The translations under genes were made by a program, and so were the position numbers. A stretch of 45,509 nucleotides of DNA, taken from sequence record OZ035793.1. One strand, written 5' to 3'. How positions within the stretch are numbered: the first letter of the stretch is position 1; every line of letters begins with the position of its first letter. The notes beneath the pieces were generated by a model that was not told the DNA's origin, ran no database searches, and worked only from the letters and a program-made list of their open reading frames with translations. Source of the stretch: Veterinaerplatzvirus T145P1. This document shows, one piece after another, positions 554-44,190 of this stretch.

Positions 554-2119
554 ATGTCTTTAGTATGGGAAGAAATGACCATTCAGGAAAAGATGGCGGT
601 TAAGGCGATATCAGAACACAGCTTCGAGGGGTTTCTTCGCTGCTGGTTTTCAATAACGCAAGGCGAGCGATATATCCCTAACTGGCATCACAAATATCTA
701 TGCCGAATTATCGACGAGATTATTGCAGGTGAGCGCAAGGACACTATAATTAACATAGCGCCTGGTAGCGGGAAGACAGAGATCGCATCAATCCACTTCC
801 CGGCCTACTCGATGGTTAAGCTGAAGAAGGTGAGGAACCTTAACATCTCATTTGCTGACTCCCTGGTTAAGCGCAACTCTAAGCGCGTACGTGACCTTAT
901 CAAGTCTCAAGAATTTCAATCACTATGGCCTTGCAAGTTTGGCACATGCAAAGACGATGAACTTCAGGTTCTTGATGAGAGTGGCAGGGTTAGATTTGAG
1001 TCAATATCAAAGGCGGCTGGGGGTCAGATTACTGGTGCTCGAGGTGGTTATATAACAGAAACATATAGCGGAGCCGTTCTATTGGATGATTTTGACAAAC
1101 CCGCAGATATGCTTTCTCCGGTTTATCGAGCTAACAACCACGTAATGCTTAAGAACACAATTCGATCACGTCGCGCTAGCTCTGTAAAGGGAAAGGCAAC
1201 ACCAATTATCTCTATACAGCAGCGCCTGCACGTCAATGACTCAACCTGGTTCATGATGGAAGGCGGTATGGGCATCAAATTCGATTTAATTAAGATACCA
1301 GCGCTAGTTACCGATGATTACATCGATTCACTTCCTGACTGGATTAAAGATCAGTTTGCTGAGGACGTACTAAGCAGTGAATATATTGAGCGAGATGGAG
1401 TAAAGTACTACAGCTACTTTCCTAAAAAGGAATCCGTAAACGACCTGGTGGCAATGTGGGATAGTGACCCGTACACTTTCCTTAGCCAATATCAACAATG
1501 CCCAGTGGCTCTTGGCGGTAACCTGATTAACGTGGATTGGTTCCAGCGTCTTAGTGATACATTCAGGCCTCCAGCTAAGTACGATTACAGATTCATCACA
1601 TGCGATACTGCGATGACTACAAAGAGTTATAGTGACTTCTCCGTGCTTCAGTTATGGGGCTATAAGGATGCTAAGATTTACCTGATAGACCAGCGCAGGG
1701 GAAAATGGGAAGCACCAGAGTTGGAGGCTGAACTGCTGGACTTCGAGAAGAAATCAAGGGCAACCAGTCAGTCAGATGGTATCCTCAGAAAGATTATTAT
1801 CGAGAAGAAAGCGTCTGGTATCGGCCTGATTCAATCAGCTGGCAGGGTTATGCGAACACCGATAGAGCCATACGTACCGGATAACGACAAGCTTACTCGC
1901 GTAATGAGCGCATTGCCACAGATTAAGGCTGGTAATGTCGTTCTTCCAGAGTCTGCGCCGTGGCTAAACGGATTGCTTACTGAGGTTGCTGCTTTTACGG
2001 CAGATGATAGCCACAAACACGACGACCAGATTGACTGTCTAACTATGGCAATCAACCTGGTACTTAACATTGCGGACGACCCCAAAGCGCGACTAATGCG
2101 CATAGCGGGAATTAAATAG
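554..2119 (+). CDS. terminase large subunit
   Basis: 521 aa; P-loop-like IAPGSGKTE near N-terminus, acidic C-terminal nuclease-like half; canonical position before portal. Confidence 0.85.
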   Translation: MSLVWEEMTIQEKMAVKAISEHSFEGFLRCWFSITQGERYIPNWHHKYLCRIIDEIIAGERKDTIINIAPGSGKTEIASIHFPAYSMVKLKKVRNLNISFADSLVKRNSKRVRDLIKSQEFQSLWPCKFGTCKDDELQVLDESGRVRFESISKAAGGQITGARGGYITETYSGAVLLDDFDKPADMLSPVYRANNHVMLKNTIRSRRASSVKGKATPIISIQQRLHVNDSTWFMMEGGMGIKFDLIKIPALVTDDYIDSLPDWIKDQFAEDVLSSEYIERDGVKYYSYFPKKESVNDLVAMWDSDPYTFLSQYQQCPVALGGNLINVDWFQRLSDTFRPPAKYDYRFITCDTAMTTKSYSDFSVLQLWGYKDAKIYLIDQRRGKWEAPELEAELLDFEKKSRATSQSDGILRKIIIEKKASGIGLIQSAGRVMRTPIEPYVPDNDKLTRVMSALPQIKAGNVVLPESAPWLNGLLTEVAAFTADDSHKHDDQIDCLTMAINLVLNIADDPKARLMRIAGIK

Positions 2120-2159
2120 CACGAATTGCTAAACGCTAGAGCCACGGATGGCGTATAGT
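2115..2159 (+). promoter_or_regulatory. composite promoter element (palindrome AATAGCACGAATTGCTAAA, 22 bp, TATAGT)
   Basis: Palindrome begins at TerL stop; TTGCTA to TATAGT spacing is 22 bp; drives moron 2191. Confidence 0.55.
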
Positions 2160-2190
2160 TACTTCACACCAACAAGAGGAGAAAAGGCAA

Positions 2191-2565
2191 ATGAAAAACA
2201 AATCAAAGGCTTTATATCTTGGAAACACTTATGACGAGTGTTGTGAATTCACGCCGGGAAGAGAGTACGATTGTTACGATCTTGGTGATGGATTTATTGG
2301 TCTTTGCGATGATAATGATACTGAACGTTGCATTAAAAACGGAACGTTCTACAAGTTTAAACTAATCAATGAGGATCATTTTGTAACTGAAACTGAGTGC
2401 GCATCCATGCAGCCTAGCGCCGATAAAAAACCCGAGTTTAGATATTACATCAATGGCGAAGTGGTTACTAAGGTAAAGTTCGACGATACGCTATTATGCG
2501 TCAAGGACTTTGAATCTAGTGGGGTTGATACATCATCAATCAAGTTCGAAGTAAAATTCGAGTAA
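2191..2565 (+). CDS. hypothetical Cys-rich acidic protein (moron-like unit)
   Basis: Own upstream composite promoter element (2115-2159), RBS aggag, own terminator 2588-2609; inserted between TerL and portal. Confidence 0.6.
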   Translation: MKNKSKALYLGNTYDECCEFTPGREYDCYDLGDGFIGLCDDNDTERCIKNGTFYKFKLINEDHFVTETECASMQPSADKKPEFRYYINGEVVTKVKFDDTLLCVKDFESSGVDTSSIKFEVKFE

Positions 2566-2587
2566 TCAAAAACCGTGTGATAAACTA

Positions 2588-2609
2588 GCCCCCACATGGG
2601 GCTTTTTTT
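2588..2609 (+). terminator. intrinsic terminator
   Basis: GCCCC-cacat-GGGGC followed by T7. Confidence 0.7.
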
Positions 2610-2623
2610 ATTGGAGAAATGCA

Positions 2624-3874
2624 ATGGTAAAGACAGACAGCTACGCCAATATCTTTCTCGGCGGCAGTGATGGTAGTGAGATTTACGGGAGCTTACAGAA
2701 TCAGGAGCCTACAATCCTGGCTTCTCTTTATGCGAATAATGCGCTGGTACGTAGAATTATCGACACAATCCCTGAGACAGCATTAGCGGCAGGATTCCAC
2801 ATTGATGGTATTGATGATGAGCCAGCATTTTGGTCGCGATGGGATGACCTGGAAATGACGCAGAATATTAACGACGCTTGGGCGTGGGCCAGATTGTTCG
2901 GTGGAGCCGCAATTGTCGCTATCGTTAAGGACAATAGAGCACTAACAAGTCCGGTCAGGGAAGGTGCTGAACTTGAAACTGTTAGAGTTTACGACCGCAC
3001 GCAAGTAAAAGTACAAACTCGCGAGGAGAATCCACGTAACGCACGTTTTGGTAAGCCACTAACCTATCGCATCACCACAAATGAGAGCGATATGTTCTAT
3101 GATGTGCACTACAGCCGAATTCACATCATTGACGGAGAGCGAATTCCTAACGTAATGCGTCGGCAAAATGATGGCTGGGGCCGTAGCGTTCTATCCAGTG
3201 ACATTCTTGACTCAATTAAGGATTACACCAACTGTGAACGACTTGCTACGCAGTTACTGAAGCGCAAGCAGCAGGCGGTGTGGAAGGCGAAAGGTCTGGC
3301 TGAGTTATGTGATGATAGCGAAGGATTTGGTGCAGCTCGATTGAGACTTGCACAGGTTGACAACAATAGCGGCGTAGGCCAGGCGATTGGTATCGATGCG
3401 GAATCTGAAGAATACAGCATTCTCAACTCCGATATTGGCGGGATCGATGCGTTCCTGGATAAGAAGTTCGATAGAATCGTTGCCCTGAGCGGTATCCATG
3501 AAATCATCCTGAAAAACAAGAACGTTGGTGGTGTGTCATCAAGCCAGAATACAGCCCTTGAGACATTCCATAAGCTAGTTGACCGCAAACGTAACTCTGA
3601 GTTGCTTCCTATTCTTGGGTTCTTAATCCCGTTCATCGTAAATGTAGAAGAGTGGTCAGTTGAGTTTTATCCTTTAGCTCAGGAATCAAGCAAGGATAAG
3701 GCTGAGATTCTGGAGAAGAACGTAAACAGCATTGCATCACTAATTGCATCTGGCGCTATGAATGCTAACGAGGCACGTGATACACTACGAGCCATCGCAC
3801 CAGAGATTAAGATTGGTGATGGTGATATTGAAGCTCAACAACAAGAAAAATCAGAGGAGGTTGTGATTGCTTAA
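2624..3874 (+). CDS. portal protein (putative)
   Basis: 416 aa ORF directly after terminase and before head genes; RBS ggag; assignment by synteny. Confidence 0.6.
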   Translation: MVKTDSYANIFLGGSDGSEIYGSLQNQEPTILASLYANNALVRRIIDTIPETALAAGFHIDGIDDEPAFWSRWDDLEMTQNINDAWAWARLFGGAAIVAIVKDNRALTSPVREGAELETVRVYDRTQVKVQTREENPRNARFGKPLTYRITTNESDMFYDVHYSRIHIIDGERIPNVMRRQNDGWGRSVLSSDILDSIKDYTNCERLATQLLKRKQQAVWKAKGLAELCDDSEGFGAARLRLAQVDNNSGVGQAIGIDAESEEYSILNSDIGGIDAFLDKKFDRIVALSGIHEIILKNKNVGGVSSSQNTALETFHKLVDRKRNSELLPILGFLIPFIVNVEEWSVEFYPLAQESSKDKAEILEKNVNSIASLIASGAMNANEARDTLRAIAPEIKIGDGDIEAQQQEKSEEVVIA

Positions 3875-3939
3875 ATTAATTGGTTACGGTGGTGGTTAAT
3901 GAATGATGAATTTGATGGCTTTTAGTGAGGAGAATTGGG

Positions 3940-5028
3940 ATGTGTAAAATCCGCTATGACAGCGCAAAGTTTAAGGCAACAATCGACGAGAATGGATTCT
4001 TAGTCGACACGCCAGTGGTGGCGCGTCTAGGCGTGCAAGTCTACTACATGGAGGACGGTCGAACGGTTCGTGAGTTTCGCCCAGCGGAGGAGGTTTTCAA
4101 GGATGAATCTCTAGCCAGCTACCAGGGTAAGCCAATGACTCTTGACCATGTTTTCGTTAACTCAGAGAATGCTAAAGAGGTGGTGGTAGGATCAGTTGCT
4201 GGAAAGGCGGAGCCATTAGGCAGCTCTGTGGTTGCTCCAATTGTTATTTACGATAGTGCCGCCATCAAGGAAGCCATGGCGGGTAACGCAAAGGAGTTAT
4301 CCGTTGGATACTCATCGGTTATTGATTACACCCCCGGCTGGGGCGACCCTGTTACTGGCGAGTACTTCCTTAAGTCTGAAAGTGAGCTATTCGACGTACC
4401 AGAAGGATGGCAGGAGTTCGACGCAATTCAGCGTGACATTAAAGTGAACCATCTGGCAATGGTGTATCGCGGTCGCGCAGGTATTGCCAAATTGAATATG
4501 GACGGTGAGCAGGAAAACCCGTATACTACTGACGTTGATATCAATAAAGAGGATAAACAGGAAATGACAGTTAAAATTAAACTCGACGGCGCGCAGGAAT
4601 TTGAAGTTGCCCCGGAAATCGCTTCTCACATCGAAGCACTGAACGCAAAGGCTGACACTGCAATCGCAGAGCGCGATGCACTGAAAGCTAAAGTTGATGC
4701 AATGCCTGCTGAAATCGAGGCCGCAGTTGCTAAAGCGAAAGCTGATGCTGATGCCCTGGCTGCTCTGGTTGCTGTTGCTGCCGAGGCTGGTGTAAAGGCT
4801 GATGGACTGGATGCTAAAGGCATTAAAGTAGCTTACGTTAAGGAAGTCTCAGGCCTGGATGTTTCCGAGAAGTCCGACGCGTACATCGACGCAGCGTTCG
4901 ACATTGCCAAAGAATCTGATAAAATGGCTGAAGTACGTAAAGCGACTACCGCTTCCGACAAATCTGACAGCGCCGATGAGCCTAAGAAATTAGACCCGCG
5001 TGCTCGTTTAGCTAAAATTAAGAAATAA
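3940..5028 (+). CDS. head morphogenesis protein with scaffold-like coiled-coil (putative protease/scaffold)
   Basis: Start trimmed to ATG 3940 behind RBS gaggag; Ala/Lys/Glu-rich coiled-coil segment typical of scaffolds; position between portal and capsid. Confidence 0.45.
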   Translation: MCKIRYDSAKFKATIDENGFLVDTPVVARLGVQVYYMEDGRTVREFRPAEEVFKDESLASYQGKPMTLDHVFVNSENAKEVVVGSVAGKAEPLGSSVVAPIVIYDSAAIKEAMAGNAKELSVGYSSVIDYTPGWGDPVTGEYFLKSESELFDVPEGWQEFDAIQRDIKVNHLAMVYRGRAGIAKLNMDGEQENPYTTDVDINKEDKQEMTVKIKLDGAQEFEVAPEIASHIEALNAKADTAIAERDALKAKVDAMPAEIEAAVAKAKADADALAALVAVAAEAGVKADGLDAKGIKVAYVKEVSGLDVSEKSDAYIDAAFDIAKESDKMAEVRKATTASDKSDSADEPKKLDPRARLAKIKK

Positions 5029-5040
5029 GGAGTTATAAAC

Positions 5041-9288: not shown

Positions 9289-9293
9289 TTGCA

Positions 9294-9336
9294 TAGCACT
9301 TTTTGCTAAAGCGGTTATTCAACTTTGCTGTATAGT
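9294..9336 (+). promoter_or_regulatory. composite promoter element
   Basis: ATAGCACTTTTTGCTAAA, 22 bp, TATAGTTA, then CATCGAAACGA leader. Confidence 0.55.
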
Positions 9337-9369
9337 TACCTCATCGAAACGAAATGAGAGATTAAAGAA

Positions 9370-19304: not shown

Positions 19305-20274
19305 AGTAGAAGTTTGGGATAAATGGAAGTGCCATTGATATGTTCGTGTCGAAAGGAAACTGAGCGCCTGTCTGAGTTGAGTAGTTACCTATTACAGATC
19401 CAGGAACAGCCCTAACGGAGCCTCCAGACATGCAAACACCCTTGTATCGTAAGTTGTTATACCCTCCGGTAACTCTAGTTGTAGCGCCGCACCTAAGCAG
19501 CGGGAAGAAACCACCATTTATTGACTGATATCCATTGCTTATTTGTATAAATCCACCAAGAACGAATGGGCGGCGAACACTTGAAAAAACAATCTGACCA
19601 GAACTATTTGACATTGTGAGTCCAGGCCCGGCCGGTGGTGGTTCATTCCTGAATATCACCAGCTGAACATGGGTACTTGCCGCAACATCATCTGTACCTC
19701 CGTAGGTTATATCCCTACACCATATTGTTGATCCATCTGATTCAAGTGATACGTTTGGATTATCCCACTTGCCGAATGGTATTCCGCTAACTGGTAGCGA
19801 TGCTGCACCGTTAACCTGTATGCCCCCAACCCAGGCCGCAGACATTAGCCGCGAGTTGCTTGATATAGCAAGGAAATCAGTTGAGTTCTCAACAAGTATT
19901 CCAGGACTTGATGAGGATGAAGCCGGTAGTATCTCAAAGCAATTACCAGCAAAGTCAATTATTCGACCATTAGCACCATTGAAGTTGCTGATAGTTATCC
20001 TGCCAGTTCCGTCATTTACCTTTTGAAACCCGTTCATGTAATAAACTTCGGGTATAACATCGTAAGCGTCAACGTGGACTGCCTTCGTTGGTAGGCAGAA
20101 AGCCGTAGAGCCAGGAAACATTGTCAATCCAAAATCCCACGAGATTGCCGGGGTTGAAAGTCCATTGGTATTTATTGATCCAGTCACAGCAGGTGCCCTT
20201 AATCCTGCCGTGATTTCCATCGCTGGTCTTCCGTCATTGAGGTCAATCAATATACCCTGCGGCATTATTTCCAC
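19303..20274 (-). CDS. hypothetical protein, possibly tail-fiber/receptor-associated
   Basis: 323 aa Gly/Ser/Asn-rich; convergent with J, co-oriented and overlapping with upstream lipoprotein gene. Confidence 0.5.
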
Positions 20275-20510
20275 TCCTTACTGCCGTGATCTGCAACAGA
20301 ACCGCCGTAACCGCCGCCAGATTTGCTTTCAATGCCAGCGTAGCGAATATCAACCTCACCAGCCGGAACAACTACACCGCCTTTCCACTTAGCTACGCAC
20401 ACGCCGTTTGCTTGTGTTGCACACCACCCATCAGGTCGAGGACCAGAAGAACAACCTACTGTCATGATTACTGCCGCCGAGATGATTGCTGATTTGATGA
20501 AGTTAGTCAT
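20265..20510 (-). CDS. lipoprotein (candidate Cor/Llp-like superinfection exclusion protein)
   Basis: Start trimmed to ATG 20510 (RBS aaggaa); signal peptide with lipobox VGCSS; small size and position near tail fiber genes. Confidence 0.55.
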
Positions 20511-20690
20511 TTTGTATTCCTTATTAAGTTGTTTCGTTTTGATGTAGTAATAATACAACCGTCAGTGCGGAATGTCTTTAGCTATTCGTGCTATTGCATA
20601 CACGTAACCGATGTAACTCGATGTATACAATCTCATCCGCGGAAAATGATATACGCACTGTTACGCAAATTTACGCATTGGTTACATTAA

Positions 20691-20750
20691 AATATCTATA
20701 TATATCAACCTTTTACTCTTATTATTATTATATATATATTACTGTGTATA
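20691..20750. repeat. AT-rich long direct repeat copy A with (TTA)4 tract
   Basis: AATATCTATATATATCAACCTTTTACTCTTATTATTATTA...ACTGTGTATA, near-identical to 39953-40021. Confidence 0.85.
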
Positions 20751-21055
20751 TCATGTAACTACTTCTATAGAGTGTTCCGGTTATAATTTTAATATCATGT
20801 GGATTTATACAGTATTGCGCTGCAGCTATACCAATGCACCCTCAGCAATGAATGATATACACGATATACACGATGGTTACATTGAGCTATAGCTGGGCCG
20901 AGATGCCAAAAAACGTAACTAGTGCCAATGCCTACACGGAATTACAAGGATTCACGTGTAAACTTAAATCAACGATTGGCAAAACCAATTGGACTGGTTA
21001 CGGTGCCGAATATATAGTTAACTCATCGAAAGCAAACAACCAGAGAGATACAGAA

Positions 21056-22879: not shown

Positions 22880-22924
22880 ATAGCATGAATTGCTAAAGAC
22901 AAAACTAAAGGGTGTGGGTATGAT
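22879..22924 (+). promoter_or_regulatory. composite promoter element (variant)
   Basis: AATAGCATGAATTGCTAAAG at Dam stop; 23 bp to TATGAT. Confidence 0.45.
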
Positions 22925-22953
22925 TACCCAATCAACAACGAACGAGGTTAAAG

Positions 22954-26705: not shown

Positions 26706-26725
26706 AATAGCACGAATTGCTAAAG
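26706..26725. promoter_or_regulatory. palindrome copy AATAGCACGAATTGCTAAAG without + strand -10
   Basis: Lies between the primase terminator and the tailspike start on the - strand; - strand TACAAT at 26729-26734. Confidence 0.4.
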
Positions 26726-26749
26726 TGGATTGTAGCATCTTTGAGTCAT

Positions 26750-27697: not shown

Positions 27698-27752
27698 AAT
27701 TACCTCCATAAACAATAAAGGCACTATACATAATGCAAAGTGCCATTGTTTA

Positions 27753-28232
27753 TCAAATCGTGCTGTTTTGCTCTTTCTTCTTTTGGTTCTCTAATTTTAT
27801 CTTGCGCCATGAACGACACTCTGGCTTAGTGGCTAATTCAGCCTCAGTGACGACTCGCAGCATATGGCGCTTTTTGCACCGAAGTGTCAGCGGTTTCCCG
27901 TTGCCGTCGAATTGCAGGTCTGGTCGGCAGAATGTAGCGCGAAAACCTTCTCCATTTCGCTTATAGTAGTTGTGAGAAAGTTGAGCCCCACGCGCAGAAA
28001 TCATACCGCGCTTAAACCATTCTTCTACAGCCTGTGGTGTTACCTTTAACTGCTTTGCGATATTCGCCTTTGTGCCGAAGAAATCAAGAACTATCTCTAG
28101 CCGCGCGCGTAGCCCGGCTCTTACTTCATCTTTTAAAACATAGTAGCCTGAAGGTCGTTTACGTTGCTTTTTGTCTTCGGTGCGGATGGTTCCGTTATTG
28201 CCGTTAATTGTTCGCTTGTCGACTGTATTCAT
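27753..28232 (-). CDS. helix-turn-helix DNA-binding protein (candidate transcription regulator)
   Basis: Basic 159 aa protein with HTH-like segment KANIAKQLKVTPQAVEEWFKRG; first gene of the - strand operon, next to divergent promoters. Confidence 0.5.
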   Translation of the reverse strand: MNTVDKRTINGNNGTIRTEDKKQRKRPSGYYVLKDEVRAGLRARLEIVLDFFGTKANIAKQLKVTPQAVEEWFKRGMISARGAQLSHNYYKRNGEGFRATFCRPDLQFDGNGKPLTLRCKKRHMLRVVTEAELATKPECRSWRKIKLENQKKKEQNSTI

Positions 28233-28243: not shown

Positions 28244-28288
28244 AATAGCATTTTTTGTTAAAAGTCATCCTGATTTGATGGTATCATT
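28244..28288 (+). promoter_or_regulatory. composite promoter element (helicase operon)
   Basis: AATAGCATTTTTTGTTAAAA then about 22 bp to ATCATT. Confidence 0.45.
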
Positions 28289-28314
28289 GTACTCAATTAA
28301 ACGCTACAAGACAA
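28286..28314 (-). promoter_or_regulatory. sigma70-like promoter for the HTH-primase-tailspike operon
   Basis: - strand TTGTCT-17-TACAAT, overlapping face-to-face with the + strand helicase promoter. Confidence 0.45.
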
Positions 28315-30328: not shown

Positions 30329-30744
30329 AGATTACAGATAAAGAAGATTACATTGAGTTTTACCAGGGTCCGGTTAAGTCATGCCCTAAAGAGGATGACG
30401 AACAAATCTTTTGCTCTGATTGGGTTAAGTATAACTACCCAGATATGGTATTTTTCCATTGCGTGAATGAGGGAAAGAAAACCATTGGTCAAGCAAGAAA
30501 AGACCAGGCTAAGGGGCTTCTAAAAGGCGTATCAGACTGTATGTTTCTTATTCCTGAATCACTTCGAGGTAAGTATCCTTTCGGAGCTATAGAGCTAAAG
30601 AGGGCTGGCAAAACTCAAGCAAGTCCAGTCAGCGAAGAACAGAAAGCATTCCTGAAAAGTGTAATGGAATCAGGCGGTTTCTCGGCAGTCGCCTACGGAC
30701 GTGAGGGTTTTCTTGCAGCATTCAAAGAAATGATTTCAAAATAG
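30325..30744 (+). CDS. VRR-NUC domain nuclease (putative)
   Basis: Small basic protein with D...E.K-like segment (DCMFLIP ... IELKR); start overlaps helicase stop. Confidence 0.5.
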   Translation: MKITDKEDYIEFYQGPVKSCPKEDDEQIFCSDWVKYNYPDMVFFHCVNEGKKTIGQARKDQAKGLLKGVSDCMFLIPESLRGKYPFGAIELKRAGKTQASPVSEEQKAFLKSVMESGGFSAVAYGREGFLAAFKEMISK

Positions 30745-30784
30745 CACGAATTGCTAAAGACGATTTTAAAAGATGGGGTATAGT
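30740..30784 (+). promoter_or_regulatory. composite promoter element
   Basis: AATAGCACGAATTGCTAAAG (includes TAG stop), 22 bp, TATAGTTA, CCATCGAAACGA. Confidence 0.55.
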
Positions 30785-30820
30785 TACTCCATCGAAACGA
30801 AACACAAAGAGAGTAATAAA

Positions 30821-31594: not shown

Positions 31595-31785
31595 TTAATG
31601 CAACTTGTGTAAAAGCAAATGGTTTCTTTACTCTACTTGAAGATTACGAAATTATCTTTAATTCAGATGGCGCAATAACAGTATTGAGCGATAATGGATG
31701 CTATTGGTTCGTTAGTTATCAAGGTGACGGGTATTACGGGTGTAGAGATTCGAATGGAAAAGAAGTTAGCTTCTTAGTTGAATAG
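31591..31785 (+). CDS. hypothetical protein
   Basis: ATGA overlap with upstream stop; ends at the TAG that starts a composite promoter element. Confidence 0.5.
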   Translation: MINATCVKANGFFTLLEDYEIIFNSDGAITVLSDNGCYWFVSYQGDGYYGCRDSNGKEVSFLVE

Positions 31786-31825
31786 CACTTTTTGTTAAAA
31801 CTCAAATCCACGTATGGATTATATT
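31781..31825 (+). promoter_or_regulatory. composite promoter element
   Basis: AATAGCACTTTTTGTTAAAA, 22 bp with hairpin ATCCA-cgta-TGGAT, TATATT. Confidence 0.5.
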
Positions 31826-31856
31826 AAGCACATCAACAACACAGGGGGTTAAAAAA

Positions 31857-32760: not shown

Positions 32761-33891
32761 ATGGCAACTGCAAAAATTACCAACGAAGAACTACGCGAAG
32801 AACTGGCAAATGGCATGACAAACAAGGCAATAGCAGAGAAATACGGAATGAACATTCGCAACGTTGAATTGCGTCGTAGTAAATTGGCGAAACAAGGTGA
32901 AGGGCATGGTCGCGATGTAAGCAACCTAATCCCTCAAGGCTATGCAGTTAAAGGCGTGTCTAGCCTAATTGGTGCTGATGGCGAGATTAAGCAACAGTGG
33001 GTTAAGTCAGATATAGACAAGGAGAAGCAAGAAGAGATGATGCTTCAGGCAATTCAGGCCCTAACTGATGAGTTGCCTCGTGAGAAACCCAAAGCCTTAA
33101 GGGTTGGTTTGTTTGAGGACACTTTAAGCCTTTACCCCGTATTCGACCTTCACATTGGCGCAATGGCTCACCATGCTGAATGTGGCGAGAACTACAGCAC
33201 TGAAATCGCTGAGCGAATCCTTAATGATTACTTTGATTACGCGGTTGCAAAAGCACCTAACTCAAAGAAGGCCGTATTGCTGATTGGTGGTGACTTCCTT
33301 CACTCTGACGGAATGGAAGCGGTAACACCAACCAGTCGTCATGTTCTTGATCAAGATAGCCGTTATCACAAACTTGTTTACGTAGCAGTGCGAGCGACAC
33401 GTCGAGCAATTAGCCGTATGCTTGATAAGCACGCCGAGGTTGAGGTTCAGATTATTCCAGGTAACCACGATCTCTCAGGTATGATTTGGCTTCGTGCTGC
33501 AATGGCAGCTTTCTATATGGATGAGCCTCGAGTTAATGTTGATGCGTCCCCCGCTGCGCTTCACGTAACGCAATTTGGGAAGACGCTGCTTGGTTACTGC
33601 CATGGGCACGAACTCAAAAAGCCTGATACCCGACTATCAGCACTGGCTCGTGACCATCGCAAAGCATTTGGTGAATCAGAGTATGTTTACACCCATTCAG
33701 GCCACTATCACCATCAAACTATTACGGAAGGAAATCTGGGTATTGATGAATCACACGGCCAGCTTGGAGCGAAAGATGCGTACAGTGCTAACGGAGGTTA
33801 TCGCTCTTACCGACAGGCTTCGGTGATAATTTATAGTCCTGAGTTTGGTGAGATTGGACGATTTACTTGCCGCCCGGAAATGTTTAGTTAA
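32761..33891 (+). CDS. calcineurin-like metallophosphoesterase with N-terminal HTH-like region
   Basis: Motifs FDLH, GGDFLHSD, GNHD, GHE, HSGHYHH; N-terminal TNKAIAEKYGMNIRNVELRR resembles a DNA-binding HTH. Confidence 0.7.
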   Translation: MATAKITNEELREELANGMTNKAIAEKYGMNIRNVELRRSKLAKQGEGHGRDVSNLIPQGYAVKGVSSLIGADGEIKQQWVKSDIDKEKQEEMMLQAIQALTDELPREKPKALRVGLFEDTLSLYPVFDLHIGAMAHHAECGENYSTEIAERILNDYFDYAVAKAPNSKKAVLLIGGDFLHSDGMEAVTPTSRHVLDQDSRYHKLVYVAVRATRRAISRMLDKHAEVEVQIIPGNHDLSGMIWLRAAMAAFYMDEPRVNVDASPAALHVTQFGKTLLGYCHGHELKKPDTRLSALARDHRKAFGESEYVYTHSGHYHHQTITEGNLGIDESHGQLGAKDAYSANGGYRSYRQASVIIYSPEFGEIGRFTCRPEMFS

Positions 33892-33934
33892 TAGCACTTT
33901 TTGCCTAACGCATGCCGTAGAAATGCGGCATAAT
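33890..33934 (+). promoter_or_regulatory. composite promoter element
   Basis: AATAGCACTTTTTGCCTAA, 22 bp with hairpin ATGCCG/CGGCAT, CATAAT, CATCGAAACGA leader. Confidence 0.55.
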
Positions 33935-33975
33935 TACCACATCGAAACGAGATGAACTAAACGAGGAAACACAAA

Positions 33976-34152
33976 ATGACTAAAATGATTTATTGCACCA
34001 AAAACAACTCCAAAACGCTGCCATTTACAGTTAACCAGCCGTACAATGCAGAGTACCAGGGTGATGGATATTACAAGATTTACGGTGACGATATGACGTG
34101 GATTTTAGCGCCGATTGAAGGTTCACTGGTTGAATTTATTATCACTGACTAG
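33976..34152 (+). CDS. hypothetical small protein (58 aa)
   Basis: Not in ORF track; own promoter element 33890-33934 with CATCGAAACGA leader, RBS gagg, strong terminator 34179-34204. Confidence 0.5.
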   Translation: MTKMIYCTKNNSKTLPFTVNQPYNAEYQGDGYYKIYGDDMTWILAPIEGSLVEFIITD

Positions 34153-37376: not shown

Positions 37377-37406
37377 TACTTCTCTCCGTGTTGTTTCTGA
37401 GCGGCC

Positions 37407-37450
37407 ATTATAACAACGACCGCTTATAAAGCATTATCAATTTGTGCTAT
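37407..37450 (-). promoter_or_regulatory. composite promoter element (- strand, ATPase gene)
   Basis: - strand ATAGCACAAATTGATAA, 22 bp, TATAAT with -10 inside hairpin AGCGG...CCGCT. Confidence 0.5.
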
Positions 37451-38152: not shown

Positions 38153-38186
38153 TTTGTTTTCCTTTGTGTCTTTCGTTTCGATGGGA

Positions 38187-38235
38187 TAACTATACAGGAA
38201 AAGCCCCGAATGGCTTTAGCGATTAGTGCTATTTA
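38187..38235 (-). promoter_or_regulatory. composite promoter element (- strand)
   Basis: - strand AAATAGCACTAATCGCTAAAG, 22 bp, TATAGTTA, CCCATCGAAACGA. Confidence 0.55.
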
Positions 38236-39247: not shown

Positions 39248-39411
39248 TTATCCTGGCCTTTTAAATTATAACGCTCTCTCAGAACTTCAACCCATTCTTG
39301 CGCGTCATTCTCTCTCATGAAGAAACTTAAATTTGGGTACTTGTGAAACCCTTTAAGTTCAACTACCCAATGACCACCTTCGTAACTATAACTAACTTTC
39401 TTCTCTGTCAT
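39244..39411 (-). CDS. hypothetical small protein (55 aa)
   Basis: Not in ORF track; first ORF after the long - strand leader. Confidence 0.4.
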   Translation of the reverse strand: MTEKKVSYSYEGGHWVVELKGFHKYPNLSFFMRENDAQEWVEVLRERYNLKGQDK

Positions 39412-39622
39412 TTTGTTACCTTTTGAGTTTTTTTATTATCGACATCTCTTCAACGTACTCGCTACAACTCGGGATTTTACTCCCGGCCCGGCATCCTAAC
39501 AAAAGGACCCGATCGGCGCTTTGGTGGGTGAGGTAACGCTTCCTCACATTGCGCGGTAGTATTTACTCCTTTTGGTCTCTTTCGAGAGTGACTCAGAGTC
39601 TGCTACCGTGTCGATGAGATTA

Positions 39623-39668
39623 AGTATACGCATAGTTAGCCACACTGTCTTTAGCAAAAAGTGCTATT
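39623..39668 (-). promoter_or_regulatory. composite promoter element (- strand, start of long leader)
   Basis: - strand AATAGCACTTTTTGCTAAAG, 23 bp, TATACT, then TCATCGACACGG. Confidence 0.45.
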
Positions 39669-39682
39669 CGTTAGATTTATGT

Positions 39683-39777
39683 ATTGTTGCAGATATTGCA
39701 ATGATTCACTTGATTATTGCACATACAGCAATATTGCTTCCGATGCAATGATGTTTTTGATTGTTGCGAAAAGTGAA
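39683..39777. repeat. nested direct repeats around a central dyad (candidate iteron/operator array)
   Basis: ATTGTTGC at both ends, TGCAATGAT twice inside, central perfect palindrome GCAATATTGC. Confidence 0.6.
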
Positions 39778-39952
39778 ATTAAGTGGTGAGTGAGTGAATG
39801 AAAGATGGATGGACTACCATACAAGTTGATTTTTACCAATCTATGGGAGCCTCACGGATATACGCGTATCCTCCGTATACTCAGTGTCGTCACAAAAGTT
39901 AGTGACCACTAACCTACGTTTTTACGCGATATATACACACGATATACAATAT

Positions 39953-40021
39953 AATATCTATATATATCAACCTTTTACTTTATTATTATTATTATTATTA
40001 TATATATGTATACTGTGTATA
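39953..40021. repeat. AT-rich long direct repeat copy B with (TTA)7 tract
   Basis: Same sequence as 20691-20750 except the microsatellite length and 3 substitutions. Confidence 0.85.
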
Positions 40022-40227
40022 CCGGTAATTGGTGAGATTATTGATATGTTCCGCGCAGATATTCTGACACCTGTCAGAAATGGATGGCATTGTAGGAATA
40101 AAAGGCACATATATAGGGAATGGCTTCAAAAATCTGTACACATCGGATACGGCACATTTACAACCAGCAATGGAGGGGCCTCTGGAGGTAAAAAGCGTAT
40201 CCATGATAAAATAGACGAAAATATACA

Positions 40228-40256
40228 TTGACCGACACGTAAATAGATGGCAATAT
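40228..40256 (+). promoter_or_regulatory. sigma70-like promoter TTGACC-17-CAATAT
   Basis: Canonical spacing; leader CACTGAAACGAAG; upstream of gene 40297. Confidence 0.5.
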
Positions 40257-40296
40257 AGCAGTCACTGAAACGAAGTAAAACAAACGAGGTATCAAC

Positions 40297-40845
40297 ATGC
40301 AGAAAGTAACACTAGGTGAAGTTATCCGTGAGATGGTGCGCAACGCGATGGTGTCCGAGAGTGGTGAGTTTAAAGTTCCGGTTAGCCAGATATTCAAACT
40401 GGTTCGAGGCAAGGAATACCCTGAAATGGTGTATGACGAAGAGACTAGTGAGATCCTCAACCTGGCAGATAGGGCGATGCCGGAACTAAAGAACTCATAC
40501 ATCTATAACACAGTGTCGAGAATGACAGAGCTTCGCGATGCTAATAAGCGAGCGAGATATAAGTTCATCTGGATTGATGATGACGGAGAGCAAACAAGGC
40601 CCGGTAGCTTCGACGGTGATGGCGCTGATAAATACCTGGTCATATACATTGAGAACGGCGCGCACTGGACTGGGAGTCGCGAAAAGAAAAAGCAGGAAGC
40701 GGAGAAAGAGGCGGCTATCATTGAAAAGTTCAAGTCTAGACTGCTCAAGCTGTCACCAAGTGTTGCTGGCTTGGAAGGTGAAGAACTTAAGGGCGCTGTT
40801 ACAATGATTAATGCTTATCAGGAAATGATTAAGGAGACTAAGTAG
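40297..40845 (+). CDS. hypothetical protein
   Basis: 182 aa; RBS gagg; upstream sigma70-like promoter TTGACC-17-CAATAT at 40228-40256. Confidence 0.55.
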   Translation: MQKVTLGEVIREMVRNAMVSESGEFKVPVSQIFKLVRGKEYPEMVYDEETSEILNLADRAMPELKNSYIYNTVSRMTELRDANKRARYKFIWIDDDGEQTRPGSFDGDGADKYLVIYIENGAHWTGSREKKKQEAEKEAAIIEKFKSRLLKLSPSVAGLEGEELKGAVTMINAYQEMIKETK

Positions 40846-40934
40846 TAGACTACCATACCACTTGTGGTACAGCGAGGAAGAGGTTGAGGTGGCCATTGAG
40901 TTCTATAGGAAAGCTAAATCACTACTGAATGGTA

Positions 40935-40979
40935 AATAGCACTTTTTGCCTAACGCGGTAATGCCATGGATGGCATAAT
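40935..40979 (+). promoter_or_regulatory. composite promoter element
   Basis: AATAGCACTTTTTGCCTAA, 22 bp with hairpin ATGCCA-tgga-TGGCAT, CATAAT, CATCGAAACGA. Confidence 0.55.
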
Positions 40980-41017
40980 AGCCTCATCGAAACGAGATAC
41001 GTAAATGAGGATTTAAA

Positions 41018-41236
41018 ATGAGCAAGGCAATCACACTGCAATGCCTTAAGACAAATAACCCAGAGTTCTTAAAAGGTCACAAATATGTGGCAACCCTGGT
41101 GGATGGGAAAACATGGGCGGTTAAGGGTGGATTCCAGGATTACAAATTCCCACTTGAGCACATACCTGGCGGAAACCTTGGTTTTGTTAGTGACTGCCGC
41201 TCAGTTAAGTTTGTTTTTGAGGTTGTAATGAAATAG
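41018..41236 (+). CDS. hypothetical protein
   Basis: Promoter element 40935-40979 plus CATCGAAACGA leader. Confidence 0.55.
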   Translation: MSKAITLQCLKTNNPEFLKGHKYVATLVDGKTWAVKGGFQDYKFPLEHIPGGNLGFVSDCRSVKFVFEVVMK

Positions 41237-41282
41237 CAATAATTGCTAAATCTTCCGCAAGGCCATTTGATATAGTGGCCTT
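41231..41282 (+). promoter_or_regulatory. composite promoter element with -10 inside hairpin
   Basis: AAATAGCAATAATTGCTAAA, 22 bp, TATAGT; inverted repeat AAGGCCA...TGGCCTT (41259-41282) encloses the -10. Confidence 0.5.
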
Positions 41283-41317
41283 GTTGAAGCAAAACAACCA
41301 ATCACGAGGTATAAATT

Positions 41318-41545
41318 ATGGTTATCAATAGTGTTCGAATCTCTGACGACTACAACGAGCAGGCTGAGGTTCTTGTTTACAAAGTCTTCAATGTCGATCG
41401 GGATACAATGAAGGTTAAGCTCGACCTCAATCCTGATGACGAATCATATCCGTCAACATACATGCTGTACACGCCAGACCAGGCTCGCCAGTTAGCAGCG
41501 TATCTGATGGAAGCGGCCCACCGAGCTGATAAGGGGGTTTTATGA
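41318..41545 (+). CDS. hypothetical protein, paralog family member A
   Basis: Shares RI.D...QAEV ... NPDD ... Y.PD.AR.LAA with ORF 41790..41999. Confidence 0.55.
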   Translation: MVINSVRISDDYNEQAEVLVYKVFNVDRDTMKVKLDLNPDDESYPSTYMLYTPDQARQLAAYLMEAAHRADKGVL

Positions 41546-41757
41546 TTACCGATCGCAAGCTATTTAAAGACATGGAAGGCGACGACTGCTGGATTGACAC
41601 GATGACAAATTTCGGAGAGGTCACTGTTGAGATTGTAATTGACGATGACTCTGGAACCTTTCCCGTGCAAGATGCGGATACCGTACGCGCAATGGGTGAG
41701 CACTTAATCAAGATGGCTGACTACATGGAGAGCCAGGGGAAATTAGCTGTAAATTAA
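41542..41757 (+). CDS. hypothetical acidic protein
   Basis: ATGA coupling to upstream gene. Confidence 0.5.
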   Translation: MITDRKLFKDMEGDDCWIDTMTNFGEVTVEIVIDDDSGTFPVQDADTVRAMGEHLIKMADYMESQGKLAVN

Positions 41758-41789
41758 TCAAGATTCGCATTATCAATAACAACGAGGAA

Positions 41790-41999
41790 ATGAAGATGGA
41801 AAATATTCGTATTGAAGATGTTCACTTTGACCAAGCTGAGGTCGGAATCACAAAAAGCGTTCAAGGATACGTTGTTTATCTAGACTTCAATCCGGATGAC
41901 TACGGGGACGGCCAGATGCTGATGCACTACAGTCCTGATAAGGCGCGCAAATTGGCGGCAGCATTAATCCTGGCGGCGGAGGAGGTGGAGAAGCAATGA
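41790..41999 (+). CDS. hypothetical protein, paralog family member B
   Basis: Paralog of 41318..41545 by visible sequence similarity. Confidence 0.55.
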   Translation: MKMENIRIEDVHFDQAEVGITKSVQGYVVYLDFNPDDYGDGQMLMHYSPDKARKLAAALILAAEEVEKQ

Positions 42000-42256
42000 A
42001 ACGTTTAATGAAATGCATGACTATTATTGCGGCAATGATTGCTCTTACTGGTTGCGAGAAGGCACCTGAGGTTCAGATTCAGTCAGGTGAATTCAATGTG
42101 GAGCGCCTATTCACAGTGGATGGATGTACCGCCTACCGATTCCGAGATAGCGATAGAGCCATCTACTACACAAATTGCAATGGCAGTACGCAGAGTGAGT
42201 ACAGGCACGGCAGGGCCATGAGACAAGAAACAGTTCAGACAGATCGCACTAATTGA
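41996..42256 (+). CDS. lipoprotein (second candidate exclusion/envelope protein)
   Basis: Signal peptide with lipobox LTGC, four Cys in mature part. Confidence 0.55.
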   Translation: MKRLMKCMTIIAAMIALTGCEKAPEVQIQSGEFNVERLFTVDGCTAYRFRDSDRAIYYTNCNGSTQSEYRHGRAMRQETVQTDRTN

Positions 42257-42290
42257 TAAAAGGGGATCCATCCTGACTGGTATAATCCCC
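42244..42290 (+). promoter_or_regulatory. degenerate composite element with extended -10 in hairpin loop
   Basis: CGCACTAATTGATAAA, 22 bp, TGgTATAAT; stem GGGGAT...ATCCCC flanks the -10. Confidence 0.45.
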
Positions 42291-42439
42291 AGCATCAACC
42301 ACATGAATGGAAGTTAAGTGACGATATACGAACATAAATTCAGTAGCAGGGGTATTGATATGCTCCTGCGCTATGTAGACGAAAAATACGCAAATCTCAT
42401 GCTTAAGACGCATGGCGGCACAATAACGAGGATTGAGAT

Positions 42440-42769
42440 ATGAGTAAATACGATCGCAAGATTATTGGCATTGATGGCACAGTAACAACAGTAGATGTTT
42501 ATCGTGTTCTTGATGCGTTTGGCGTATCTGACCCAGCCACTCAGCATGCGGTAAAGAAGATGCTTTGCACTGGCCTGCGTGGACACAAGGATTACTTAAC
42601 TGACCTTAATGACTCCATTGAGTCACTACAGAAGGCTAAAGAGATTTACTGGCAGAAGATGATTCATGAATCCGATAAAATCACTGATTCAATTTTAAAT
42701 CCACCAAAAGAAGCGAGATTTAGTACTGCTAATGGTTCAGAATTCACTTTCGGAAAGGTTAGAGTCTAA
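42440..42769 (+). CDS. hypothetical protein
   Basis: RBS gagg; preceded by ~145-nt leader from a hairpin-embedded TGnTATAAT promoter. Confidence 0.5.
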   Translation: MSKYDRKIIGIDGTVTTVDVYRVLDAFGVSDPATQHAVKKMLCTGLRGHKDYLTDLNDSIESLQKAKEIYWQKMIHESDKITDSILNPPKEARFSTANGSEFTFGKVRV

Positions 42770-42813
42770 ATAGCACGAATTGCTAAACCCGCTCCTGCGG
42801 GTTTTGTTATAGT
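42768..42813 (+). promoter_or_regulatory. composite promoter element with terminator-like hairpin in spacer
   Basis: AAATAGCACGAATTGCTAAA, spacer contains CCCGC-tcct-GCGGG-TTTT, then TATAGTTA. Confidence 0.55.
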
Positions 42814-42841
42814 TAGTTCACACCAATCGAGAGGTAAGAAA

Positions 42842-42934
42842 ATGAAGCAATACACATCAAGCAATCACCATAACGGTCACATCATGCAGTTCTATCGCCA
42901 CAATCTGAAGACTAAGGGAGTGTTTGGAAAATGA
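42842..42934 (+). CDS. hypothetical small protein (30 aa)
   Basis: Not in ORF track; RBS gagagg; ATGA overlap with next gene. Confidence 0.3.
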
Positions 42935-43149
42935 TTACAATTAACCTGTCAGAAAAGCAAGCAGCAGAACTCAAGTGCATGCTGTCAATCTTTGAGAAGA
43001 CAAATGACCGAGCAATTGCAAAAGAGGTCACGACTCAAATCAACAACCAGCAGTTCGACGTCAGTGACTTCGAGTCGTCACGGCAGTACGAAGCATTAAG
43101 CGTCAACGCTGCATACCTGGCTAACTGGGATAAGGCAACGAAGAAATGA
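42931..43149 (+). CDS. hypothetical protein
   Basis: ORF-track ORF. Confidence 0.5.
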
Positions 43150-43283
43150 TTTACATCCACACGTACTACACTGGTAAGTCTAATAGCGTCAAACATGTCC
43201 GTGTTCACGATAACTACGAGAGCGCAAAAGCTCAATGGTTGGTTCTTGGTGGTGACATTAATTCATACAGAGTTGCTGAGTAG
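43146..43283 (+). CDS. hypothetical small protein (45 aa)
   Basis: Not in ORF track; ATGA overlap; its TAG stop begins a promoter palindrome. Confidence 0.35.
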   Translation: MIYIHTYYTGKSNSVKHVRVHDNYESAKAQWLVLGGDINSYRVAE

Positions 43284-43329
43284 CACTAATTGCTAAAACA
43301 GTATTGGGGTAATTTGTTATAGTTACCCC
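43281..43329 (+). promoter_or_regulatory. composite promoter element
   Basis: TAGCACTAATTGCTAAAA, 22 bp, TATAGTTA; stem GGGGTAA...TTACCCC spans the -10; CATCGAAACGA leader. Confidence 0.55.
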
Positions 43330-43353
43330 ATCGAAACGAGAGAGGAATAAGAA

Positions 43354-43533
43354 ATGACATTTCAACAAAGTGAGCCAAAGCTCCAGGCTAATCACTTCGA
43401 TGGTTATTCGACCTTTATCATTGCCCAGGCCTGCGGGATGCGTGACGAACCACAGGTTCACACAATTCACTTAACCGAAGAGCAGGCTCGAGAGATTGCT
43501 TACGAAATTCTTGAGCAATTGAACCGAATTTAA
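43354..43533 (+). CDS. hypothetical small protein (59 aa)
   Basis: Not in ORF track; promoter element 43281-43323 plus CATCGAAACGA leader, RBS gagagg. Confidence 0.45.
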   Translation: MTFQQSEPKLQANHFDGYSTFIIAQACGMRDEPQVHTIHLTEEQAREIAYEILEQLNRI

Positions 43534-43582
43534 CGCGACTAAAGCGCATTCTAACGAACGATAATTTAAGTAAGGTGATTCT

Positions 43583-43744
43583 ATGATTAAGATTGTTTAT
43601 GTTGGCGAGAGTGATTATGTGGCGCTCATTCAGCGTGGTGATGTGTTCTTCGCTGAGCTAAGTGAGGATGGAAAATATTACATTGTAAAGAATAAGAATG
43701 GCGAGGATATTTACCTATCAAAAGATGAGGTCATAGTTCACTGA
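43583..43744 (+). CDS. hypothetical small protein (53 aa)
   Basis: Not in ORF track; RBS aaggtg. Confidence 0.4.
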   Translation: MIKIVYVGESDYVALIQRGDVFFAELSEDGKYYIVKNKNGEDIYLSKDEVIVH

Positions 43745-43875
43745 TGGATAACTACGAATCACCAAGCCAGTGGGCCAAACGAATGCAGGACGAAGCCAAG
43801 ACTGGTGAAGAGGCGATGGCTTACTACGAGCTAGCGCAAATTTGGATGAAGCGGGAGGGCAAGAGCAATGATTAA
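43744..43875 (+). CDS. hypothetical small protein (43 aa)
   Basis: Not in ORF track; TGATG overlap coupling. Confidence 0.3.
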   Translation: MDNYESPSQWAKRMQDEAKTGEEAMAYYELAQIWMKREGKSND

Positions 43876-44020
43876 CACTTGCATTTATTTTTATGGCCAT
43901 GAATTTATTGATGACTTAATGTACTTTCACGAAAAGTATGGCGACACATTCGAATGCGATGGTGACAATCTTGAGGTTCTAGCGACATTCAATAGGGGTG
44001 GCAAAAATGAGTTTCACTGA
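43868..44020 (+). CDS. hypothetical small protein (50 aa)
   Basis: Not in ORF track; overlapping start. Confidence 0.3.
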   Translation: MINTCIYFYGHEFIDDLMYFHEKYGDTFECDGDNLEVLATFNRGGKNEFH

Positions 44021-44150
44021 ATATGTTATCGCATGTGAACGACTGGTCTTTGATATGAAGACTTTTCACTGGTTCATAATTAAGGATTTAGTTAAGCCTT
44101 ATAAGAAAGGTGTTATGCCAGAGCAGTTTGTTAAGTCGTTCTACAAATAG
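44007..44150 (+). CDS. hypothetical small protein (47 aa)
   Basis: Not in ORF track; ends at the TAG that starts a promoter palindrome. Confidence 0.3.
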   Translation: MSFTEYVIACERLVFDMKTFHWFIIKDLVKPYKKGVMPEQFVKSFYK

Positions 44151-44190
44151 CACGAATTGATAAACCAGATCGCCACGGATGGCATATAAT
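44145..44190 (+). promoter_or_regulatory. composite promoter element
   Basis: AAATAGCACGAATTGATAAA, 22 bp with hairpin GCCA-cgga-TGGC, TATAAT. Confidence 0.55.

Follow-up and report, generated by a model that had tools for sequence, protein, structure and literature searches.

Composite promoters repeated across a T1-like coliphage genome resemble class II marbox promoters and may be read by a host activator

The marbox, the type of site to which the Escherichia coli proteins MarA, SoxS and Rob bind, is a non-palindromic, oriented sequence, 5'-gcannwwntgnnaaa-3' in the version of the Grainger laboratory (PMC12052159), with GCAC and (C/T)AAA as recognition elements about 7 bp apart (PMC8811837, PMC9638938). 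In class II marbox promoters, a forward box overlaps the -35 position and is centred at about -41/-41.5, no -35 element is recognisable and the -10 is normal (PMC10268841, PMC9638938, PMC8811837). A repeat of unknown function was meanwhile described in the 2024 re-annotation of phage TLS, where a 21-nt direct repeat, aaATAGCACnnnTTGnTAAAA, occurs in 21 places, oriented with transcription and about 76 nt upstream of start codons, and is seen too in T1, Rtp and Rogue1 (PMC11447400). Only three sigma70-like promoters were reported for TLS, and stoperators, enhancer-binding sites or upstream (UP) elements were suggested for the repeat (PMC11447400). Here, we analyse the 45,509-nt DNA of Veterinaerplatzvirus T145P1 (record OZ035793.1, the window in the following), which megablast assigns to the Drexlerviridae (T1-like coliphages), and describe a composite element in which the TLS repeat corresponds to a 20-bp box with the sequence and geometry of a class II marbox.

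Each composite comprises, in this order, the box (ATAGCACnWWTTGCTAAAnn), a gap, a sigma70-type -10 hexamer (most commonly TATAGT), a CA at the predicted start and an A/C-rich leader. The motif ATAGCANNNNNTGYTAAA was matched with at most one mismatch 14 times in the window (0.29 expected), and a looser scan with inspection of the flanks gave 19 boxes, 18 with a sigma70-type -10 and one orphan (26707). Boxes start at 2116, 9293, 22880, 26707, 28245, 30741, 31782, 33891, 40936, 41233, 42243, 42770, 43280 and 44147 on the plus strand and at 20594, 27766, 37450, 38232 and 39667 on the minus strand. All 18 copies with a -10 point forward, with GCAC distal and AAA proximal to the promoter. The gap between box end and hexamer is 18 bp in 14 of the 18 copies, 19 bp in three (20594, 22880, 39667) and 17 bp in one (28245), equivalent to 22, 23 and 21 bp, respectively, when counted from TTGCTA. 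The original prediction of about 17 copies, spaced by 22 bp or, in two of them, 23 bp, was correct in the recurrence on both strands and in the 22-bp rule, and too low in the number of copies and of exceptions. Its remark that the box often begins at the upstream stop codon is borne out by five copies in which the stop of the upstream open reading frame is the TAG within ATAGCAC (2116, 30741, 31782, 41233, 44147) and three with a TAA abutting or overlapping the box (22880, 42770, 33891), and the two copies that it had placed in the late module are those at 2116 and 9293.

The hexamers of the window (TATAGT, TATAAT, CATAAT, TATGAT, TATCAT, TATATT, TATACT and TATTAT) share a constant A2 and T6, as sigma70 -10 elements do; our scan demanded these two bases, yet the window copies obtained by the unfiltered search also show both without exception. 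The sequence TATAGTTA occurs exactly in nine places in the window (1.5 expected), six of them within composites. Predicted leaders are mostly 22-40 nt long. The A of the CA, as the predicted start, falls at about 2166, 9343, 30791, 33941, 38182 (minus strand), 40986, 42820 and 43330 in eight of the copies. A conserved leader, as originally proposed, is present in the strict sense in six window copies with an exact CATCGAAACGA and in degenerate form in others; across the family, a CA at the predicted -1/+1 followed by TCGAAACGA is conserved only moderately, with 0.4-0.9 bit per position.

For a view across relatives, we retrieved 72 loci around homologues of the phage regulator gene from IMG/VR, chosen by protein and not by motif, and combined them with the complete genomes of T1, SU57 and the window (75 loci/genomes, 1.45 Mb). 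Logos were half-anchored, i.e., each half was built by anchoring on the other half plus the -10 (about 300 sites), and pair and symmetry statistics were derived from 396 unique family sites. The 15-mer marbox pattern has 16 exact matches in the window versus 0.93 in dinucleotide shuffles, and all 19 window boxes fit it with at most one mismatch. The 20-mer consensus of Martin et al. (1999), which reportedly reads AYnGCACnnWnnRYYAAAYn, gives 15 window matches at up to one mismatch where 0.93 are expected. The supplementary sites of PMC12052159 had been pre-selected with the consensus and yield no independent weight matrix. The succession of box, 18 bp and hexamer was found in 292 of the 396 family sites (74%), in line with the 14 of 18 in the window. 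If transcription begins 7-8 nt after the hexamer, as predicted, the box spans about -50 to -31 and its centre lies between -40.5 and -41.5; the earlier proposal of an activator-type site at the class II position stands on these predicted starts. Family sites mostly match a -35 in 0-2 of 6 positions at a 17-bp spacer, and 83 of 396 have a partial extended -10 (TGn). In the early half of the genome, promoter-like sites with canonical -35 and -10 are no more frequent than expected (42 versus 41.6), which agrees with the three sigma70-like promoters reported for TLS. By every sequence-level criterion, the composites are class II marbox promoters, and the box is the asymmetric type of site bound by MarA, SoxS and Rob and not a dyad.

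The best-matching described promoter is that of micF, a class II promoter dependent on MarA, SoxS, Rob or RamA. In the K-12 genome, with its annotated 5' end, micF reads ACAGCACTGAATGTCAAAAC, 18 bp, TAGAAT, 7 nt, start; like the phage copies, it has a forward 20-bp marbox over the -35 position, 18 bp to a sigma70 -10, no -35 and a box centre at about -41. In contrast to micF, the phage boxes are nearer to consensus and nearly identical to each other, at about 20 per 45-kb genome, their spacer often contains a hairpin, their leader is conserved and their activator is a candidate. The marbox of the mar operon, ATGCCACGTTTTGCTAAATC in K-12, is identical to phage copy 9293 in 16 of 20 positions, with the TTTTGCTAAA half fully identical. 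This marbox, the DNA of the MarA crystal structure, is class I, backward and upstream of a -35, unlike the phage boxes.

The original prediction had taken the box for a palindrome and its dyad symmetry for the principle of recognition. Complementarity is, however, confined to a 5-bp core (TAGCA/TGCTA), and mirror symmetry fails beyond it. The conserved flanks are direct and not mirrored, with A/A at positions 1/17 in 89% and C/T at 7/11 in 86% of family sites. Even within the core, pair 4/14 is Watson-Crick in just 54%, and position 4 shows no compensating change. The commonest box of the family, ATAGCACTTTTTGTTAAAAC, is the dominant one in T1 and no palindrome at the DNA level, and the palindrome-breaking window copies 20594 and 38232 (TaGCTAAA, TcGCTAAA) differ only at an 'n' of the 20-mer consensus. 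In the logos, the upstream half has T83/C11 (Y) at position 2, GCA, and C83/T13 (Y) at position 7; the middle has W9 (A50/T49), W10 (T57/A42), T12 and G13 (G97); the downstream half has C54/T34/A9 (Y) at position 14, T81/C16 (Y) at position 15 and A84-92 at positions 16-18. The positions that are free in the logos hence reproduce the degenerate marbox code (Y2, Y7, W9, W10, Y14, Y15). Judged by this distribution of information, the box is an asymmetric marbox as read by the monomeric MarA/SoxS/Rob proteins with their two motifs of the helix-turn-helix (HTH) type. Dimeric class II activators are also known, such as CRP at -41.5, lambda cI at OR2/PRM, and Mor and C of phage Mu, both at -43.5; they likewise overlap the -35 region and replace a poor or absent -35, but their sites are true dyads, in contrast to the asymmetric phage box. 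Among the IMG/VR loci there is also a minority box class (e.g., ATAGCACTTTTTGACTTGCG, ATAGCACTTTTTGCCTTGCA) that keeps ATAGCAC and TTG and has CTTGC in place of TAAA, i.e., it lacks the second marbox element.

It is probable, in our assessment, that the composites are class II promoters activated by host Rob, MarA or SoxS. Each copy would be a sigma70 promoter without a -35, with the forward marbox overlapping the -35 position instead. A host protein of the MarA family would bind the box at about -50 to -31, touch sigma70 region 4 as well as the alpha C-terminal domain and recruit RNA polymerase to the -10, and transcription would start at the CA about 7 nt downstream of the hexamer. Rob, being constitutively abundant, is the likeliest binder in unstressed cells, and MarA and SoxS would add to it under stress. 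The 18-bp gap would not be contacted by the activator and hence be free to vary, and in most copies its hairpin would end the upstream transcription unit or stabilise its 3' end, so that the genome would be divided into about 20 separately activated units. The sequence, orientation and spacing of the boxes, the missing -35, the asymmetry, the conservation across the family and the lack of an AraC-type phage protein are observed, and the identity of the binding protein, its activating role and the start points are inferred. The genes marA, soxS and rob are all present in E. coli, and host labels in the family are mostly Enterobacterales (824 phage records). A homologue of MarA, SoxS or Rob was not detected in the phage (best tblastn hit E = 0.18, inside the terminase gene; hmmsearch with a MarA+SoxS+Rob profile E > 1), nor was an AraC-type domain in Pfam and PHROGs scans of 30 non-structural proteins.

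The 18-bp gap has no conserved sequence but is structured. Folding of the 39 nt between box position 16 and 10 nt beyond the hexamer gave, for the 396 family sites, a mean of -9.1 kcal/mol, compared with -4.3 for shuffles and -5.6 kcal/mol for random 39-mers from the same loci, and 55% of the sites versus 21.5% of the random 39-mers reach -8 kcal/mol or lower. Hairpins of one class lie within the gap and run into the T-rich hexamer; three of these are annotated as terminators directly after boxes in the T1 RefSeq record. In the other class, the arms flank the hexamer (window copies 41233, 43280, 37450, 27766, 30741 and 22880). Hairpins in the gap or around the hexamer are found, for example, at 42785-42804, 41253-41290, 43293-43337 and, on the minus strand, 37440-37395. 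Compensatory changes occur among paralogues and orthologues of the 41233 type (AAGGCC/GGCCTT, AAGGGC/GCCCTT, AAGAGGC/GCCTCTT). In our reading, the gap hairpins form the 3' ends of the units before them and are embedded in DNA with which a class II activator makes no contact.

The only recognisable DNA-binding regulator of the phage is a 159-aa HTH protein (27753..28232, minus strand; phrog_2856, weak P22_Cro match), which had been put forward as a protein to test on the box. Its AlphaFold model (predicted local distance difference test, pLDDT, 89.7) has a single HTH domain, which is closest to all-alpha Cro proteins (Xfaso-1 and N15 Cro; template-modelling score, normalised by target, about 0.7), and the structure comparison gave no MarA or Rob matches; in its predicted structure, the protein thus resembles Cro and not AraC. 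A comparison of 29 family variants showed great variability in the recognition helix (residues 65-75; VTPQAVEEWFKRG, VSIQVVQQWRKRG, VCCVRLTNAYRRG and others), and the box consensus is identical in every regulator-variant group, a combination that would not be expected of the box reader. Residues 5-24, by contrast, form a disordered N-terminal arm (DKRTxNGNNGTxRGxDKKxRKRP) that is nearly invariant and far more conserved than the recognition helix, which suggests that the arm contacts a conserved partner, e.g., DNA or RNA polymerase. Box 28245 lies between the regulator's own promoter (TTGTCT-17-TACAAT) and its start codon. Because of the invariant arm and this box in its own 5' region, the regulator stays a candidate reader. 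A second IMG/VR scan for distant relatives that might separate the box from the regulator returned the same family only.

Several points weigh against a host activator. A3 and T11, both invariant in the box, exceed what the marbox consensus specifies, and at position 19 (A/C/G) the Y of the 20-mer is not followed. To our knowledge, most known phage-specific promoter classes use phage-encoded activators, and in unstressed cells Rob is for the most part kept sequestered and inactive. The phage has a conserved regulator of its own, with the invariant basic arm at its N-terminus and a box in its 5' region, as for an autoregulated operator. Furthermore, Pseudomonas phage Motto has at least 17 boxes and Vibrio phage Vc1 about 10, near-consensus and with the same 18-bp spacing; Motto is reported to form plaques on 32 of 50 P. 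aeruginosa isolates (PMC10978715), and P. aeruginosa is without SoxS (PMC7546422). Host labels in the family are not always reliable, as 20 records are labelled Campylobacter, but the tail fibre of Motto is unique, which leaves its label undiscredited, and the label looks genuine. A protein search with the Rob domain returned Enterobacterales only among its top matches and says nothing on Pseudomonas or Vibrio. Since both Vc1 and Motto, the latter apparently genuine, carry boxes, we lowered our confidence in a host factor to the level given above and reserved a smaller share for a phage-encoded reader. Host Rob/MarA/SoxS and a phage protein of the same specificity are both considered here as candidate activators.

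A phage-encoded activator is the alternative that we consider less likely but serious. The Cro-like protein, perhaps through its N-terminal arm, or an unrecognised small early protein would read the box in class II position at -42, similar to lambda cI at OR2 activating PRM, which is essentially the model of the original prediction. The 5+5 bp inverted core TAGCA-N5-TGCTA centred near -42 would fit such a protein, and the regulator is kept in every family member examined (824 phage records; 80 loci), has a promoter of its own with the box placed such that autoregulation would be permitted, and has the invariant arm DKRTxNGNNGTxRG; the retention of boxes in a phage that grows on P. aeruginosa would also be accounted for. 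The asymmetry of the site is systematic, however, and falls exactly on the marbox-defining positions, and an unrelated phage protein would need to have arrived at the marbox sequence as well as the micF spacing by convergence, with a chance match to the constrained positions of roughly 1e-6 by our estimate. The Cro-like protein in particular fits in its DNA-binding fold, but its recognition helix varies while the box remains unchanged, and its predicted fold has a single Cro-type HTH in place of the double HTH of MarA.

It is improbable that the box is instead a stoperator or roadblock for a repressor, or a UP-like enhancer read by RNA polymerase itself through the alpha C-terminal domain or sigma. 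These options, brought up by the TLS authors (PMC11447400), are in accordance with the orientation of the box with transcription and its location at gene ends, with A-rich positions -1 and 0 upstream of the box, with the invariant T11-T12-G13 that resembles the TTG of a -35, and with the orphan box 26707 downstream of a minus-strand -10. Yet stoperators do not require the fixed distance to the -10 that 74% of the family sites keep, the conserved core contains G/C (GCAC, TGC) as opposed to A/T-rich UP elements, the 22 bp between TTG and hexamer fall outside the 16-18 bp sigma70 spacer range of the promoter scan, and removal of the activator would leave about 20 promoters with no -35 and at best a partial extended -10. 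Least credible of all, and very improbable, is the second explanation offered at the outset, an intercistronic RNA hairpin (UAGCA-loop-UGCUA). Five complementary base pairs are possible and the frequent C14-to-T change keeps a G-U pair, but minimum free energies are 0 to -5.7 kcal/mol (-3.7 or weaker for the box stem alone) with z-scores of -1.6 to +0.15, double-sided changes are absent from the 396 sites, position 14 is A in 8% (a G-A mismatch), T2-to-C is uncompensated, and the fixed distance to the -10 has no rationale at the RNA level.

Other sigma factors and promoter classes were compared as well. The sigma54 -24/-12 consensus is TGGCACG-N4-TTGCW with a start about 12 nt downstream; for TAGCACG..TTGC in the box, we rejected this reading, as the box has AG instead of GG, a G-to-G distance of 9 instead of 11 and a conserved -10 and leader 22 bp further on. 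Sigma32 (CCCCAT in the leader) and sigma28 (TAAA-N15) were discarded by inspection against the commonly known consensuses, as the spacings misfit. TTGCTA as a -35 is discounted, as in the original prediction, by its overlong 22-bp spacer, and a conserved alternative -10 at 17 bp downstream was not found. The middle promoters of T4 (MotA box plus AsiA) resemble the phage class in combining a sigma70 -10 with a substitute for the -35, but the centre of the MotA box is at -30 and its use requires two phage proteins, homologues of which were not recognised in the window.

An exact-pattern scan of IMG/VR recovered at least 120 stretches, all on contigs of 33-53 kb, and about 22 such promoters were found in T1. 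The repeat itself was already known from TLS in 2024, and the marbox reading of it is apparently new: the TLS paper mentions neither a linked -10 nor marboxes (PMC11447400), and we found nothing in the searchable literature that links marboxes, MarA or Rob with phage promoters or T1. Whether the Drexlerviridae as a family handed over activation of nearly all early and middle units to host MarA/SoxS/Rob, with about 20 near-optimal class II marboxes per genome, is in our view an even bet. T1 is a classic T phage whose promoters were never explained, with genome papers that list hardly any sigma70 promoters and leave a 21-nt repeat without explanation, and class II marboxes offer a concrete and cheaply testable mechanism. 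If true, this would be a rare lytic phage family in which most transcription depends on a specific stress regulator of the host. Phage expression would follow the state of the host with respect to antibiotics, bile salts and oxidative stress, phage DNA would during its replication draw these regulators off the resistance regulon, and the mar/sox/rob genotype and inducers such as salicylate, bile and paraquat would alter phage productivity. Therapy with T1-like phages (E. coli, Klebsiella, Salmonella, Shigella) could then interplay with bile and with antibiotics that induce MarA/SoxS/Rob, mutations in mar/sox/rob could be a route to phage tolerance, and the composites could serve synthetic biology as compact, insulated and inducible promoter-terminator units.

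The window shares about 98% identity (megablast) with the database match Veterinaerplatzvirus T145P1 and 86-93% with 2725-N35, SU57, ACG-M12 and the BASEL phages JeanPiccard and JulesPiccard, and its gene order is that of SU57. Terminase, portal, head and tail genes extend from 30 to about 19,300, recombination genes occupy 21-24 kb, the minus-strand tailspike gene starts at 26713, and primase, the 159-aa 'transcriptional regulator' and helicase are encoded at 26.7-30.7 kb. Small early genes come next, then the lysis genes and a second helicase gene, and after these two blocks of small early genes.

The first late-module composite (2116..2177, plus strand) has its box (ATAGCACGAATTGCTAAACG) at 2116-2135, 18 bp, -10 TATAGT at 2154-2159 and a predicted start at about 2166; it is predicted to drive 2191..2565 (a virion protein) and the portal gene, and the TAG of its box doubles as stop codon of the gene for the large terminase subunit. 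The second, in the tail module (9293..9354, plus), is preceded by an intrinsic terminator and has box 9293-9312, -10 TATAGT at 9331-9336 and leader CATCGAAACGA. On the minus strand, 20532..20594 (box 20594-20575, ATAGCACGAATAGCTAAAGA; 19 bp; -10 TATTAT at 20555-20550) is predicted to drive the lipoprotein/Cor-like gene 20265..20558. The plus-strand composite 22880..22942 (box 22880-22899; 19 bp; -10 TATGAT at 22919-22924) is the predicted promoter of the genes for the Erf-like recombinase and the single-stranded DNA-binding protein. The orphan box (26707..26726, plus), without a plus-strand -10, lies in reverse orientation just downstream of a minus-strand TACAAT hexamer and just upstream of the tailspike start (26713), and might serve to repress a late gene.

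Around the regulator, 27705..27766 (minus; box 27766-27747, ACAGCACGATTTGATAAACA; -10 TATAGT at 27728-27723) sits in the 3' end of the HTH gene and is predicted to drive the primase gene, and 28245..28305 (plus; box 28245-28264, ATAGCATTTTTTGTTAAAAG; 17 bp; -10 TATCAT at 28282-28287) the helicase and VRR-NUC genes. At 28282-28314, the plus-strand TATCAT overlaps the minus-strand TACAAT of the HTH gene, which has TTGTCT 17 bp upstream, resulting in a bidirectional promoter; the T1 equivalent of this overlap is TATTAT/TATAAT at about 36482. A run of small early genes would be driven from 30741..30802 (plus; box 30741-30760; -10 TATAGT at 30779-30784; leader CATCGAAACGA). The plus-strand copies 31782..31843 (box 31782-31801, a TTGTTAAA variant; -10 TATATT at 31820-31825) and 33891..33952 (box 33891-33910, a TTGCCTAA variant; -10 CATAAT at 33929-33934) follow, the latter upstream of 33976..34152 and the lysis genes.

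Three further copies are on the minus strand: 37389..37450 (box 37450-37431, ATAGCACAAATTGATAATGC), predicted to drive the DUF3987 helicase gene, with a hairpin-flanked -10 TATAAT at 37412-37407; 38171..38232 (box 38232-38213, a TCGCTAAA variant; -10 TATAGT at 38194-38189; leader CATCGAAACGA); and 39605..39667 (box 39667-39648; 19 bp; -10 TATACT at 39628-39623). The remaining copies are on the plus strand. They comprise 40936..40997 (box 40936-40955; -10 CATAAT at 40974-40979; leader CATCGAAACGA); 41233..41294 (box 41233-41252, ATAGCAATAATTGCTAAATC), whose -10 TATAGT (41271-41276) lies in a loop closed by the arms of an AAGGCC/GGCCTT hairpin of -21.9 kcal/mol; 42243..42304 (box 42243-42262, ATCGCACTAATTGATAAAAG; -10 TATAAT at 42281-42286); 42770..42831 (box 42770-42789; -10 TATAGT at 42808-42813), with a terminator-like hairpin (42785-42804) in its spacer; 43280..43341 (box 43280-43299, GTAGCAC...; leader CATCGAAACGA), where a GGGGTAA/TTACCCC hairpin flanks the -10 TATAGT (43318-43323); and 44147..44208 (box 44147-44166, a TTGATAAA variant; -10 TATAAT at 44185-44190).

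A boxless promoter at 20975..21045 (plus) has the family -10 and leader (TATAGTTAACTCATCGAAAGC), with a TATAGTTA match at 21013, and no marbox; the leader/-10 module can therefore occur without a box. Its upstream region contains a ATTGGcaaaaCCAAT dyad as well as TTGGAC, with 18 bp between TTGGAC and the -10. The adjacent stretch 20600-21000, AT-rich, non-coding and between divergent promoters, contains (TA)n runs, GGTTACAT repeats and, in either orientation, repeated ATGATATAC(AC) motifs, and may function as an origin of replication or as an array of operators bound by the Cro-like regulator. The Rfam scan of the window gave nothing besides one tRNA gene (66 bits), which is located near the right end at 45152-45225, where SU57 has a tRNA-Arg at the corresponding place.

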